A program made the position numbers. A DNA stretch of 64,000 nt, from assembly GCF_046105845.1 (NCBI RefSeq), contig NZ_CP151004.1; one strand, 5' to 3'. Of this stretch, positions 39,001 to 48,236 are shown one piece after another (the first letter of the stretch is position 1; each line of letters starts with the position of its first letter). Source of the stretch: Escherichia coli (GTDB lineage: Bacteria; Pseudomonadota; Gammaproteobacteria; Enterobacterales; Enterobacteriaceae).

Positions 39001-42000
39001 AGCTCAACGACGTTGAAGATGTTCTGCCGGAGTCATTACCGCTCGGCATTCGCCAGCGGCTTTCGCTGGCGGTGGCGGTGATTCATCGCCCGGAGATGTT
39101 AATCCTCGATGAGCCTACTTCTGGTGTCGATCCGGTGGCGAGGGATATGTTCTGGCAGTTGATGGTCGATCTCTCGCGTCAGGACAAAGTGACTATCTTC
39201 ATCTCCACCCACTTTATGAACGAAGCGGAACGTTGCGACCGTATCTCACTGATGCACGCCGGAAAAGTGCTCGCCAGCGGTACACCGCAGGAGCTGGTTG
39301 AAAAACGCGGAGCCGCCAGTCTGGAAGAGGCATTTATCGCCTATTTGCAGGAGGCGGCAGGGCAGAGCAACGAAGCCGAAGCGCCGCCCGTGGTACACGA
39401 CGCCACCCACGCGCCGCGTCAGGGATTTAGTCTGCGCCGTCTGTTTAGCTACAGCCGTCGCGAAGCACTGGAACTGCGACGCGATCCGGTACGTTCGACG
39501 CTGGCGCTGATGGGAACGGTGATCCTGATGCTGATAATGGGTTACGGCATCAGTATGGATGTGGAAAACCTGCGCTTTGCGGTGCTCGACCGTGACCAGA
39601 CCGTCAGTAGCCAGGCGTGGACGCTCAATCTCTCCGGTTCCCGTTACTTTATCGAACAGCCGCCGCTCACCAGTTATGACGAGCTTGATCGTCGGATGCG
39701 TGCGGGCGATATCACGGTGGCGATTGAGATCCCTCCCAATTTCGGGCGCGATATCGCGCGTGGTACGCCTGTGGAACTCGGTGTCTGGATCGACGGTGCG
39801 ATGCCCAGTCGTGCCGAAACGGTAAAAGGTTACGTGCAGGCTATGCACCAGAGCTGGCTACAGGATGTGGCGAGCCGACAATCCACACCCTCCAGCCAAA
39901 GCGGGCTGATGAACATTGAGACGCGCTATCGCTATAACCCGGACGTAAAAAGCCTGCCAGCGATTGTTCCGGCGGTGATCCCGCTTCTGCTGATGATGAT
40001 CCCGTCAATGCTAAGCGCCCTTAGCGTGGTGCGGGAAAAAGAGTTGGGGTCGATTATCAACCTTTACGTGACTCCCACCACCCGTAGCGAATTTTTGCTT
40101 GGCAAACAGCTACCGTACATCGCGCTGGGGATGCTGAACTTTTTCCTGCTCTGCGGCCTGTCGGTTTTTGTGTTTGGCGTACCGCATAAAGGCAGTTTCC
40201 TGACGCTCACTCTGGCGGCGCTGCTGTATATCATCATCGCCACCGGAATGGGGCTGCTGATCTCCACCTTTATGAAAAGCCAGATTGCCGCCATTTTCGG
40301 AACGGCGATTATCACGTTGATCCCGGCGACACAGTTTTCCGGGATGATCGATCCGGTAGCTTCGCTGGAAGGTCCAGGACGTTGGATCGGCGAGGTTTAC
40401 CCGACCAGTCATTTTCTGACTATCGCCCGCGGGACGTTCTCGAAAGCGCTGGATCTGACTGATTTGTGGCAACTTTTTATCCCGCTGCTGATAGCCATAC
40501 CGCTGGTGATGGGCTTAAGCATCCTGCTGCTGAAAAAACAGGAGGGATGATGCGCCATTTACGCAATATTTTTAATCTGGGTATCAAAGAGTTGCGCAGT
40601 CTGCTCGGTGATAAAGCGATGCTGACATTGATTGTCTTCTCGTTTACGGTGTCGGTGTATTCGTCAGCGACCGTCACGCCAGGATCATTGAACCTCGCGC
40701 CGATCGCCATTGCCGATATGGATCAATCGCAGTTATCGAGCCGGATCGTTAACAGCTTCTATCGCCCGTGGTTTTTGCCACCGGAGATGATCACCGCCGA
40801 TGAGATGGATGCCGGACTGGACGCCGGACGCTATACCTTCGCGATAAATATTCCGCCTAATTTTCAGCGTGATGTCCTCGCCGGACGCCAGCCGGATATT
40901 CAGGTAAACGTCGATGCCACGCGCATGAGCCAGGCATTTACCGGCAATGGGTATATCCAGAATATTATCAACGGTGAAGTGAACAGCTTTGTCGCGCGCT
41001 ACCGTGATAACAGCGAACCGTTGGTATCGCTGGAAACCCGGATGCGCTTTAACCCGAACCTTGATCCCGCGTGGTTTGGCGGGGTGATGGCGATCATCAA
41101 CAACATTACCATGCTGGCGATTGTGTTGACCGGATCGGCACTGATCCGCGAGCGTGAACACGGCACGGTGGAACACTTACTGGTGATGCCGATAACGCCG
41201 TTTGAGATCATGATGGCGAAGGTCTGGTCGATGGGGCTGGTGGTGCTGGTGGTGTCGGGATTATCGCTGGTGCTGATGGTGAAAGGCGTGCTGGGCGTAC
41301 CGATTGAAGGCTCGATCCCGCTGTTTATGCTGGGCGTGGCGCTCAGTCTGTTTGCCACCACGTCAATCGGCATTTTTATGGGGACGATAGCGCGTTCAAT
41401 GCCGCAACTGGGGCTGCTGGTGATTCTGGTGCTGCTGCCGCTGCAAATGCTTTCCGGTGGATCCACGCCGCGCGAAAGTATGCCGCAGACGGTGCAGGAC
41501 ATTATGCTGACCATGCCGACGACACACTTTGTCAGCCTCGCGCAGGCCATTCTCTACCGTGGTGCCGGATTCGAAATCATCTGGCCGCAGTTCCTGACGC
41601 TGATGGCAATTGGCGGCGCGTTTTTCACCATCGCGCTGCTGCGATTCAGGAAGACGATTGGGACAATGGCGTAAGGAAGCGAAACTTGACTTCATATTGT
41701 GATGTCATACTATTGATGTCATAAAGTGAAGTCATAAGGACATGCCATGAGAACCCAGGTACAGGCTTTACGGAAGAAACAAAAAACACATTGGATCAAA
41801 TACTTAAATCTCCTGTTCCTCAAGGGATTAAGTGGTCTGATATAGAGTCACTGGTTAAAGCATTAGGCGGAGAAATTAAGGAAGGAAGAGGTTCGCGTTG
41901 TAAGTTCATACTAAATATGAGCGTTGCGTGTTTCCATCGGCCTCATCCGTCGCCAGATACCGATAAAGGCGCTGTAGAAAGCGTGCGTGACTGGTTACTA

Positions 42001-45000
42001 AGTATAGGGGTAAAACCGTGATCAAACTGAAGACGCCAAACTCTATGGAGATTGCCGGGCAACCTGCTGTTATCACTTACGTGCCAGAACTGAATGCATT
42101 TCGTGGCAAATTCCTGGGCTTGTCAGGTTATTGTGATTTTGTCTCTGACAGCATTCAGGGGCTGCAAAAAGAAGGGGAGCTTTCCCTGCGAGAGTATCTT
42201 GAGGATTGTAAAGCTGCGGGTATTGAGCCGTATGCGCGTACAGAAAAGATTAAGACTTTTACATTACGCTATCCAGAATCGCTGAGTGAACGCCTTACTA
42301 ATGCGGCTGCGCAGCAACAAGTCTCTGTAAATACTTATATTATTGAAACGCTAAATGAGCGTTTGAATCATTTATAACTTATAGCGGCCCAACAATTTCT
42401 GTTGCGCCGCTATATTTTTGTGGCTCTTAAGATGCCTTTCTAATCAACCGATGCCCCTCATTCATCATCAGGATTTTGCTATACACATCTTCCTCGACGG
42501 CGTTTTTTGCTGATGCCATCACTCGTGCCAGATTCGCCTCGTTGTGATTATTCACATACGCTTTGCCGACGGCGGTGATAAACGCTTTGCGCAGATCGCT
42601 GGCGATATTTACTTTAGCGACGTGATAATTAACAAAGCTGCGCAATATCTCCGGGGCGATACCGGAGCCGCCGTGAATAACCAACGGCACCGGACAGACT
42701 TCGGCAATGCGCTTCAGCAAGGGGATATCGATCCGCGGTATATCGTCCAGACCATGAACGTTACCAATAGAAACTGCCAGCATGTCGCAACCGGTGCGCT
42801 CGACAAAGGTCTTCACCTTTTCCGGTTCCGTTTTGCAATCGGCTTCGCTGACGTGATCATCTTCTTTGCCGAGAATCGCCCCCAGCTCCGCTTCAACCGG
42901 TACGCCATAGGATTTACAGAAATCGACAGCTTCCTGGGTGAAAGCGATATTCTCTTCAAAAGAGAATGCGGCACCGTCAATCATGACCGAGGTAAAGCCC
43001 GCGCGCACCGCCTGTTTAACATCCTCCTGAGTTTTCCCGTGATCCAGATGAAGACTGACCGGAACATCCATTTTATCGGCGTGACGTTTCACGATTTCAT
43101 AAATGTAATCGTATCCCGAGAGTTGTGCATTGGTGGGCGCAATCTGAATGAAGTTGGGTAATCCTGAACGCTCAATGGCGTTTAAAATTGAAATCGTCGT
43201 CTCCAGATTGGTGGTATTAAACGCGCCCGCTAATACCCGTTTTTCCTGAATGCGGTCGAGCAGTATCCGTCCATTAACTAATGGCATTTGAAAACCTCAT
43301 CTTTTAATATCAGTTAATTATTCAGCTTCACCGAAGCGGTCACGAAATAAGGCGGTGAGAGTTTGTATTGCCTCATTTTCATCATCGCCTTCGCAGCGTA
43401 TTTCCACCGTTTTACCGCCTTTTATTCCGGCGCGCATAATATTCATCATGCTGGTGGCATTAATATCATTACCCTCATAATGCAGCGTCACTTTACAGCT
43501 AAACTTTTTGGCGGCTTTTACCAGACAAGCCGCCGGACGTGCATGCAGGCCAGTACTGTTTCTGACCTCCACGGTTTTACTCAACATAGTGCTCCTCCCG
43601 ATGGTGTAATGGCATCACGCCTTCTTGCTGTAATTTCAACTGATACCAGCTTTTCCATTTGTGCTGATAACGCTGTAATTGATGGTATCTCGCCCGATTC
43701 GGTAACAAACGTTGGGCTATGGTAACTTGCGGCGGTGGAATATCCGGTGCGGCAGTTAATAATGCTCCGACAGAAACCGCCTCGTTAAATGCAATTGCCT
43801 CAACCGGACGCTGTAAAATATCCGCCTTTAATTGCAGCCAAAGGGGATTATGGGTTGCCGGGCCGATTACTTTTAACGCGCTGGTGCCAGGCACATTAAA
43901 ACAGGCGAAGCAGTTGGCAAATTCCATGGTTAATCCCAGTGAGACGCTGGCAATTAACATGTCAATATTTAACGTATCGCTAAGCCCATAAAATAATCCA
44001 CGGGTATGGCGATTTTTATAGGGCGAACCCGAACCGCGAAGATGTGGAATAAAGAGGGGAATGTCATCGAGCGACCAGTTCCCCGCCAGGTAATCCGCAT
44101 GTCCGCGAGTAAGTGATGCGGCGATCTCCTCATCGGTTAGCCGGAACGTGTTACGCAGCCACTCCAGAGCGAAACCGCCCACGGGCAGCGACGCAAACAG
44201 GGTGAACTGGTTTGCAAGCGAATAACAGCCGTTTGCCAGCTTGTCACGTTTGGCCTGTTCATCCAGCGTCGGTTGTGTATCCAGTTGCAGAATGCCTTCT
44301 GTGGTCCCCGTCGAGTTAAGGATATCGCCCGGCATCATCTGCAACGCCCGTGCACCCACCATATGGTCATGTCCGGCCAGCGTCACGCTGACCGGTTGCG
44401 AGAACCCAAGCGTTTTGCAGAGCGACTCGCTGACCCATCCGGCGTGTTCGCCTGGCTGCACCAATGGCGCAAATGCTGAACAGGGAACGTGTAACAACGC
44501 CGCCGCTTTCGCTGACCATTCGCCTTTGCGCACGTCCAGACACAGCGTGCGGCTGGCTAAGGTGATATCCGTGCGCTGTTCGCCGGTCAGCCGCCAGAGC
44601 AGTACTTCCGGCGCATGTAGCCAACGCAGGCCGCGGCGATTACGCAGTGGGTAATGTTCCAGCAACCAACGCATTTTGAAGGCAGAGTAATTGCTGTGCA
44701 GCGGTAACCCGCAAATGTCATAAAGTGCCGCACTGTCTGCCTCGCTAAGTGTAGCCAGATACTCTTCACCGCGACGGTCATACCAGGCCAGCATTGGCGT
44801 CAGGATCTCGCCATGCTCGTCAAGGAACACGCCTGACTCGCCAAAACTGGCAATGCTTATCCGCCTGACTGGCAGCGGCGAAGCGGCGTTCAGTTGCGCT
44901 ATCGCCTGGCGGACCTCCTGCCAGAGGGCGTCGATATCGAAATCGACATCGCCCTGTGGGGAGATCTGTTTTGCCGTCACGAATTTATGCGCGCCCAACG

Positions 45001-48000: not shown

Positions 48001-48236
48001 AGCGGTATTTGTGACGACTTACTTAATGATTTCATGGCGCGCACCTGAACATTTACAGTTGTCTATGGACAATCATGGACAACTTCAAGCGTATAGTAGG
48101 TGAACGGGAGAAAAAGAGGATCGAAGCGTCTCACATTTTGAGGGACCAAATCGTGATCAAAAAAATGTGACGTGAGTCGATATTTGTCAGAAGTTTACTG
48201 CGCCGTAAGGAAATAACGGCGCGTTGGTAGGTGTTA

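Follow-up and report, generated by a model that had tools for sequence, protein, structure and literature searches.

Strains of Escherichia coli differ in the genes that they carry between yhhJ and nikR, and the question raised by this locus is which gene set was there first. In the 64,000-nucleotide stretch of E. coli DNA analyzed here (contig NZ_CP151004.1 of assembly GCF_046105845.1; hereafter, the window), open reading frame (ORF) listing and profile scans showed that this interval of about 6.5 kb (41675-48233) contains a HicAB-like type II toxin–antitoxin pair (hicA-hicB) on the plus strand, followed by a seven-gene phosphotransferase system (PTS) operon on the opposite strand. A preliminary description of this DNA, made from the sequence alone, had reported the same gene content, which was confirmed, and had stated that K-12 carries rhsB, yhhH, and yhhI at this junction, which is correct, the MG1655 locus being nikR-rhsB-yhhH-yrhC'-yhhI-yhhJ. 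It had also proposed that the interval is a single accessory block that replaced the Rhs element. The data presented below lead us, with good confidence, to another reading: the window would contain two independent and long-resident modules, with intergenic spacers that turn over rapidly, and the Rhs element of K-12 would be the newcomer.

Gene Content and Borders of the Interval

When the interval was aligned to K-12 by blastn, only the flanks were recovered. On the left side, the alignment ended at 41674 with the stop codon of yhhJ (41672..41674, plus strand), where homology to genomes carrying the operon without hicAB (PTS-only genomes) also ends. On the right side, it ended at 48236, at the stop codon of nikR (48234..48236, minus strand). 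These two stop codons are the left and right breakpoints of the block. The junction sequences showed that the nikR stop codon is TAA in the window, versus TGA in K-12 and in genomes that carry hicAB only.

No Rhs core, H-repeat, or tip/immunity remnant was found in the block by blastn against the K-12 rhsB locus, and no integrase or transposase sequence was detected inside it, either by blastn or by profile scans of all ORFs, each of which was assigned to families unrelated to mobility (NCBIfam and Pfam). The absence of a Rhs core, an H-repeat, and a transposase gene, as already noticed in the preliminary description, was thus borne out. A search of the borders for direct repeats and for scars of Rhs or insertion sequence (IS) elements found none, the best "repeat" (21 nt with an 81% match, 42006 versus 48141) being probably due to chance, and no Rfam family was matched within the block. 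With neither an integrase or transposase, nor a tRNA target, nor flanking direct repeats, the block is not an integrative genomic island or a transposon.

Distribution of the Modules among E. coli Genomes

The states of the yhhJ-nikR site were counted in 5,426 complete E. coli genomes. The block was matched in some part by 3,129 of them and was covered over at least 80% of its length, meaning that the operon is carried, in 1,631 (about 30%), O157 and ST131-type strains included. The junction between hicB and the aldolase gene of the operon was spanned in 581 genomes, which therefore have both modules. By subtraction, approximately 1,050 genomes carry the operon only and approximately 1,498 carry hicAB only. 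The Rhs state was recognized by the nikR-rhsB junction, spanned in 2,114 genomes (about 39%), and by the yhhI-yhhJ junction, spanned in 1,828. The sum of 3,129 and 2,114 is 5,243, consistent with mutually exclusive states. In three genomes, a further and rare variant was found, in which nikR has a DUF3829 gene as its neighbor. At least five states thus occur at this site, in agreement with the earlier suggestion of a variable hotspot, while the view of a single accessory block had to be abandoned, since hicAB (0.7 kb) can be present without the PTS operon (5.8 kb) and vice versa.

In E. coli O169:H41 (NZ_CP062824.1; 10560-12060 of the locus compared), the DUF3829 gene lies with a bacterial interspersed mosaic element (BIME) between the operon and nikR. 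In this strain, the operon terminator is followed by a duplicate of about 25 bp of the 3' end of nikR (GGCAGGCACTGCAAATGCCCGTG), and the 50 bp nearest to nikR agree with the hicAB-only state.

The same genes, in the same order and at the same position between nikR and yhhJ, are present in E. coli O157:H7 Sakai as ECs4349-ECs4357 (Z4874 onward in EDL933), with 97% nucleotide identity to the window. As the block corresponds to these Sakai genes, is annotated by RefSeq in many genomes, and alternates with Rhs position 9 in a way that follows from published comparisons, the locus is a real but ordinary polymorphic slot that has already been sequenced, and nothing in it is surprising to specialists.

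Age of the Modules outside E. coli

Species-representative genomes were scanned with the kinase of the operon, and the window proteins were then mapped. The arrangement yhhJ-operon-nikR was found in Escherichia whittamii, in Citrobacter amalonaticus, and in a metagenome-assembled genome labelled Citrobacter that is 96-98% identical to the window, and Escherichia sp. E1V33 carries both hicAB and the operon. The operon also abuts nikR in Escherichia sp. MOD1-EC7003, in which yhiI-rbbA-yhhJ is missing (equivalent to about 36293-42445 of the window); only the right part of the BIME is left in this strain (12640-12900 of the locus compared). Nucleotide identity to E. whittamii is 94-96% for block genes and flanks alike, and identity to C. 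amalonaticus is 72-83% for the block genes and 80-86% for the flanks. Moreover, the spacer between the regulator gene of the operon (gntR) and nikR, with its operator-like repeats, is co-linear as far as C. amalonaticus.

The loci of close HicA homologues showed the order rbbA-yhhJ-hicA-hicB-nikR-nikEDCBA in Citrobacter spp., and the order hicA-hicB-nikR-nikEDCBA, with a different left flank and no yhhJ, in a second Enterobacteriaceae lineage. The identity of hicAB to the window is 80% in Citrobacter and 74% in the second lineage, compared to 83% and 76% for the nik genes. Since the same linkage is found in other genera and the divergence resembles that of the nik genes, hicAB is an old neighbor of nikR and not a recent mobile arrival. 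Judging from these comparisons, both modules were already at this site before E. coli arose. The idea of an old rather than a recent insertion is thus supported, both by the lack of mobility genes and direct repeats and by a divergence from the outgroups that is like that of the flanks.

The seven genes of the operon and their control region were also found in unrelated contexts in about ten other Enterobacterales genera, no other neighbor being conserved. In the operons of these genera, the proteins have diverged to different extents: enzyme IIC (EIIC), enzyme IIB (EIIB), the regulator, and the aldolase mostly share 83-96% protein identity, with a much stronger divergence of the FGGY kinase (61-79%), enzyme IIA (EIIA; 59-75%), and HPr (42-83%). 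Gene order also varies between genera with respect to HPr and the aldolase.

Several observations weigh against the reading of two long-resident modules. The GC content at third codon positions (GC3) of the operon is 0.42-0.59, lower than that of the flanks (0.62-0.77), and an older horizontal origin is therefore likely. The genus Citrobacter is split between the PTS-only and hicAB-only states, and an ancient transfer of the whole region by recombination in the flanks may have occurred instead of strict vertical descent. Between hicB and nikR, the spacer of E. coli could not be aligned to that of Citrobacter, and the hicAB-only genomes of E. coli may either have lost the operon or never have had it. 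Each state was counted by a search of its own, and the genomes sampled over-represent O157 and clinical lineages.

Some of these points would also be accounted for if the operon had reached the site only once, in Escherichia or in C. amalonaticus, and had later been transferred to the other through homologous recombination in the flanking sequences. Such an exchange fits the low GC3 of the operon and the hicAB-only state of the site in other Citrobacter species, as well as the presence of the operon in unrelated contexts in many genera, which suggests mobility over long timescales. It also fits the uneven nucleotide identity to C. amalonaticus (72-78% for the kinase, EIIA, and HPr, versus 80-86% for the other operon genes and the flanks). 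However, most block genes have diverged like the flanks, and the control region and the nikR junction are co-linear, and we thus regard a single arrival followed by exchange as rather unlikely. The event would be ancient anyway, and the Rhs state would still be derived. The independent, long residence of both modules remains our preferred interpretation.

Origin of the Rhs State of K-12

The 3' end of the aldolase gene, at the hicAB-proximal end of the operon, differs between states. In the window, the protein ends with GHRLIRKAS, which resembles the GHPLLRQAS end found in C. amalonaticus. In the PTS-only genomes it ends with GHRLVK, and a pair of repetitive extragenic palindromic (REP) sequences forming a BIME abuts the gene and replaces its last codons. 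Since the REP pair truncates the aldolase in these genomes, the arrangement with both hicAB and the operon keeps the older gene end. K-12 has the same REP pair right after the yhhJ stop codon, shared up to GGCCGGATAAGGCGTTTA, which is the center of the second REP. Beyond GGCCGGATAAGGCGTTTA, the K-12 sequence is that of the Rhs/H-repeat side and the sequence of the PTS-only genomes is that of the aldolase gene. Because K-12 shares the REP pair up to the center of the second REP, the Rhs state descends from a REP-bearing configuration resembling that of the PTS-only genomes. Jackson et al. (2009) described the nikR-yhhJ site as Rhs position 9, which "evolved uniquely in the K12/HS/ATCC8739 lineage" (PMC2935791).

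The window thus displays the fullest and probably the oldest Escherichia arrangement (yhhJ-hicAB-operon-nikR). From there, a REP pair would have taken the place of hicAB in the PTS-only state. The hicAB-only state of E. coli may have arisen by loss of the operon or may have retained an older hicAB-nikR junction, and either reading stands. In the lineage that includes K-12, the RhsB element would have replaced everything between the REP pair and nikR. The Rhs element of K-12 is in this respect a replacement and a derived state, and we infer the polarity of some of the transitions. It occupies the same chromosomal slot as the block and excludes it, and its content is unrelated (Rhs core, toxin tips, immunity genes, and an ISAs1-type transposase).

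The opposite scenario, in which a single accessory island replaced a Rhs element at a hotspot, was suggested by the presence of rhsB-yhhH-yhhI at the exact junction in K-12 and by homology that stops at both stop codons, and the GC3 of the block, which is below that of the flanks, would agree with it. Nevertheless, about 2,550 genomes have one module without the other, no Rhs remnant lies under the block, outgroup species have the operon or hicAB at the site, half of the REP pair typical of the PTS-only genomes persists in K-12, and Rhs position 9 was dated to a late lineage (PMC2935791). We consequently consider this scenario very improbable. From the initial proposal of an old replacement at a hotspot, the variability of the site and its age were upheld, whereas the single block and the direction were not, the Rhs state being the derived one. 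A K-12-centered annotation is thereby corrected, as the genes called "accessory" are the older ones here and it is the Rhs element of the reference strain that took their place. This locus further illustrates, on a small scale, how modules are swapped in E. coli without mobility genes, at breakpoints marked by REP pairs and terminator hairpins.

The HicAB Pair

The promoter region of hicAB (41686..41735, plus strand) was characterized by promoter scan and folding. It contains sigma-70-like −35 (TTGACT, 41686-41691) and −10 (TACTAT, 41708-41713) boxes and an imperfect palindrome, TGACTTCA...TGAAGTCA (41687-41735), which folds at −24.6 to −26.5 kcal/mol (z = −4.5) and whose outer arms are kept in Citrobacter and in another Enterobacteriaceae genus. 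This palindrome, located after yhhJ, lies across the promoter of hicA and has been kept in other genera, and it is thus better read as an operator, presumably bound by HicB, than as a terminator. In some E. coli hicAB alleles, a 14-bp deletion takes out the −10 box.

A hairpin terminator had previously been assigned to each border of the block. On the nikR side, a hairpin (GCGCCGT...ACGGCGC; 48200..48223, minus strand; −13.1 kcal/mol, z = −3.9) is indeed found just downstream of nikR and is likely its terminator; it is present in every Escherichia genome in which the operon abuts nikR, and not in C. amalonaticus. On the yhhJ side, the structure is the palindrome at the hicA promoter, and the clear terminator is internal: a bidirectional hairpin, recognized as an inverted repeat and by folding, lies between the convergent hicB and aldolase genes (42380..42414; −21 kcal/mol on the plus strand, −22.9 kcal/mol on the minus strand, z about −5). 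In the hicAB-only state, homology to the window is lost at 42388, within the left arm of this hairpin.

The hicA gene (41747..42021, plus strand) belongs to the HicA_toxin family (Pfam PF07927, 38 bits versus a cut-off of 27 for the 76-aa remnant; its homologues carry this family assignment as well) and is frameshifted, which had been overlooked before. The run of A residues at 41781-41786 has six A in the window and seven in all six other aligned alleles. As a result of this 1-bp deletion, the frame starting with ATG ends after 32 codons, and the remaining frame is open only from a TTG codon at 41791 (76 aa), with no obvious ribosome-binding site. The deletion is real, since two further, independent NCBI assemblies also have it, and one of these, GCA_044249515.1, matches the window with 100% identity over 13.5 kb. 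With regard to the origin of this DNA, the best identity of the window (36000-48233) to any of the complete E. coli genomes was 98.4-98.8%, so that these genomes give a poor coverage of the source lineage.

The hicB antitoxin gene (42018..42377, plus strand; HicB family, PF05534, 57.6 bits versus a cut-off of 21) is intact and overlaps the hicA stop codon. It starts with GTG in the window and with ATG in the other alleles; in Sakai, an ATG-started hicB follows an intact 91-aa hicA. One and the same HicB protein (WP_000593555.1) is annotated in three backgrounds with differing hicA genes. The lesions of hicA in other lineages consist of an internal stop codon, or of an ATG directly followed by TAA together with the 14-bp promoter deletion, with an identical HicB, and many truncated E. 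coli HicA clusters were found in the protein collection. These varied lesions beside an identical HicB fit a decaying toxin and a retained antitoxin, and the hicAB remnant of the window is most likely a self-regulating orphan antitoxin, although translation of the truncated hicA could still begin at the TTG codon at 41791, which would speak against this interpretation.

Toxin–antitoxin pairs are often proposed to stabilize neighboring DNA, and hicAB could accordingly be viewed as an addiction module that maintains the adjacent PTS operon, the two being adjacent and convergent in the 581 genomes that have both. The genomes that carry either module alone argue against this role, as do the linkage of hicAB to nikR in genera without the operon and the disruption of hicA in the window and, differently, in other lineages. 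The probability that hicAB acts as an addiction module for the operon thus appears to be very small.

The pair is related in organization to HicA-HicB of E. coli K-12 (yncN/ydcQ): in both, the toxin gene precedes the antitoxin gene and the two overlap, the proteins belong to the Pfam HicA_toxin and HicB families, and the promoter is palindromic. However, no pairwise similarity to K-12 HicB was detectable, and the HicA proteins differ in their conserved residues. The homologues of the window HicA are 84-91 aa long, with an N-terminal extension compared to K-12 HicA, and GSR and FHRPHPSPDTDKG are nearly invariant in this subfamily, from Enterobacterales to Acidobacteriota. In the HicA proteins studied, the histidine of a Gly-Ser-His-type motif is essential. 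When 18 members of the subfamily were aligned with K-12 HicA, the position of this catalytic histidine was occupied by the near-invariant Arg of GSR, in an alignment that is weak (19% identity). The conserved histidines of the subfamily are located instead in a FHRPHP motif, and an invariant HRPHPSPDTDKG block further distinguishes this family from K-12 HicA. Residues 76-114 of HicB gave a weak match to the Arc repressor (E = 0.36), which bears on a possible C-terminal ribbon-helix-helix DNA-binding domain. No sequence-related solved structure was found for this HicA, and searches of solved structures with the kinase, the aldolase, and HicB likewise failed to yield any close or informative relative. 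Neither HicA nor HicB matched a defence-system family in PADLOC.

Two other hicAB loci were inspected. In E. coli HH97 (NZ_CP116409.1; 9029-9721 of the locus compared), hicAB differs from the other alleles mainly by many small insertions (83-88% identity) and its genes are marked as frameshifted by PGAP, which looks like an assembly error and not biology. In Citrobacter sp. GCA_028062515.1, hicAB is flanked by two direct copies of a GC-rich palindromic element of about 47 bp (CCGGCCTGCGGTCGCGAACTGCGCCAGGCCGGAGAAGCGCAGCGCAC), located at about 4878-4924 of the locus compared, after yhhJ, and at about 5641-5687, after hicB. Recombination between these two copies would cleanly remove hicAB.

Genes and Control Region of the PTS Operon

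All seven genes of the operon, encoded on the minus strand, are intact and have ribosome-binding sites, and the expected phosphorelay and metal-binding residues are present in their products. The first gene (47289..48035) encodes a GntR/HutC-type regulator of 248 aa with a winged helix-turn-helix and a UTRA domain (PF00392 and PF07702); it is annotated at 747 bp in RefSeq genomes. It is followed by the genes for an EIIA of the fructose/mannitol type (EIIA_2; 46791..47264; 157 aa; PF00359, 115.9 bits) and for an EIIB of 93 aa with the N-terminal cysteine motif FVCATG (46513..46794; PF02302). The next gene encodes an EIIC of the Gat family (45078..46436; 452 aa), which belongs to the wider Gat EIIC superfamily (PF03611, 308 bits). 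The ATG at 46436 agrees with the RefSeq annotation as the start of EIIC, and the mechanical ORF reaches a GTG at 46466.

The fifth gene (43577..45085) encodes an FGGY-family sugar kinase of 502 aa (Pfam FGGY_N, 152.6 bits; FGGY_C, 87.5 bits). This kinase reached none of the equivalog cut-offs of XylB, GlpK, FucK, GntK, RhaB, LsrK, and AraB, its best score being obtained with XylB (147 versus 380). Among solved structures, glycerol kinases come nearest to it, with about 91 bits. In the assembly collection, 365 blocks list a protein identical to this kinase. The sixth gene encodes an HPr-like phosphocarrier (43318..43587; TIGR01003, 105.9 bits versus a cut-off of 47.9) with His15 and Ser46, and the first 11 bp of this gene are shared with the 3' end of the kinase gene. 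The last gene (42427..43287) encodes a class II ketose-bisphosphate aldolase of the PRK07998 type (286 aa; NF005943, 556.6 bits versus a cut-off of 364). The name of this family states no substrate, the protein fell below the cut-offs of the GatY, KbaY, and FbaA models, and its closest solved relative is AgaY.

The control region of the operon (48036..48185, minus strand), with a predicted regulatory function, contains operator-like repeats, TTGTCCATGATTGTCCATAGACAA, at 48058-48083. It accompanies the operon in 14 loci of other genera, in which these repeats are near-invariant. The near-invariant TTGTCCAT/TTGTCCATAGACAA repeats beside the promoter are likely a repressor site. Upstream of them, CRP-type half-sites form an inverted repeat (48120-48181). 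A canonical TGTGA-N6-TCACA box was found in seven of the 14 loci, the genera with such a box upstream of the operon being Enterobacter, Cedecea, Phytobacter, Rahnella, and Trabulsiella, while Escherichia and C. amalonaticus have a degenerate left half. Loss of this half may have altered catabolite control. CRP control of the operon in the window strain is not claimed here, since no CRP match with two mismatches or fewer was found in the window and the canonical box is restricted to other genera.

Predicted Function and Substrate of the Operon

The gene content suggests how the operon could work. The GntR/HutC-type repressor would probably act through the conserved TTGTC..GACAA repeats of the promoter. 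The dedicated HPr-like protein, EIIA, and EIIB would relay phosphate from phosphoenolpyruvate to a sugar entering through the Gat-family EIIC, the FGGY kinase would add a second phosphate to the imported sugar phosphate, and the class II aldolase would cleave the bisphosphate to dihydroxyacetone phosphate (DHAP) and a phosphorylated aldehyde. In the simplest reading, the sugar taken up is probably a ketose, which would receive a phosphate at each end before the aldolase cleaves it. The substrate is most likely already a ketose, because no dehydrogenase, isomerase, or hydrolase is encoded in the operon, and since the seven genes and the control region move together with no other conserved neighbor, the unit should suffice alone. 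No substrate-hinting conserved neighbor enzyme was found in other genera. The roles of the operator and the repressor, the order of the phosphorylation steps, and the class of the substrate are inferred from these features.

Two points weigh against this proposal. FGGY kinases usually act on unphosphorylated sugars, so that the second phosphorylation of a PTS product by such an enzyme is a proposal, and no functional study of the substrate was found in the literature searched by Sakai tags and by gene and enzyme names. The Salmonella genes STM3779-3785 were considered as a possible counterpart of the operon, STM3784 being mentioned in papers as a putative sugar phosphotransferase near SPI-3; the genome scan with the kinase gave no Salmonella locus, and this candidate link is not relied upon here.

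The same literature, searched with the Z tags of EDL933, yielded only a transcriptome study in bovine contents (PMC6199705). In that study, Z4875-Z4877 and Z4879, the homologues of EIIA, EIIB, EIIC, and HPr, were upregulated in bovine rumen, small-intestine, and rectum contents when compared to M9-glucose, and the operon is therefore expressed and regulated in EDL933. Being intact, conserved in Enterobacterales, present in about 30% of the complete E. coli genomes, and induced in bovine gut contents, it may aid gut colonization.

The system was named a galactitol transporter in the bovine study (PMC6199705), and the database names, such as "PTS galactitol transporter subunit IIC" in RefSeq, likewise suggest a second galactitol system, in line with the placement of EIIC in the Gat family. 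Such a function is improbable in our opinion. All three transport components scored under the curated cut-offs, with 476 versus 542 bits for EIIC (TIGR00827), 60 versus 95 for EIIB (NF007643, GatB), and 57 versus 139 for EIIA (NF007236, GatA). In addition, the operon lacks a galactitol-1-phosphate dehydrogenase, which no conserved neighbor provides, and its kinase is of the FGGY type and not of the PfkB/Pfk type of the gat and tagatose routes.

The predicted ketose route nevertheless shares its logic with the gat and PTS-dependent D-tagatose pathways, whose general scheme (PMC10101011, together with general knowledge) comprises uptake and phosphorylation by the PTS, a second phosphorylation, and cleavage to DHAP and triose phosphate by a class II aldolase of the GatY/KbaY type. 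It differs from them by its FGGY kinase, its own HPr, and its GntR/UTRA regulator, and by having neither a dehydrogenase nor a GatZ-like partner. The block itself and its alternation with Rhs are already known, and the points of interest are the substrate of the operon, which is the practical question, and the chemistry of the HicA subfamily. We tentatively suggest, as a possibility somewhat short of even, that the seven-gene unit is an undescribed PTS route for a rare ketose or a related sugar, combining an FGGY kinase acting on the PTS product, a dedicated HPr, and a PRK07998-type aldolase, and that the GSR-type HicA has a possibly different active site.

Neighboring Features

The right flank of the block is formed by nikR (48234-48635, minus strand). 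Co-linearity with Sakai (96.8% identity over 16965-54274) stops at acpT, and from 54274 the window follows K-12 towards yhhT. Beyond acpT, Sakai has a 15-gene cluster resembling fatty acid synthesis genes (ECs4327-4341), unlike the window, which does not carry it. Finally, Rfam matches outside the block (8874-8905 and 19147-19464) correspond to the shuA/chuA 5'-untranslated region thermoregulator and to two copies of the AgrB antisense RNA. The thermoregulator implies the presence of the chu haem-uptake locus, and the AgrB copies belong to the agrAB-dinQ region.

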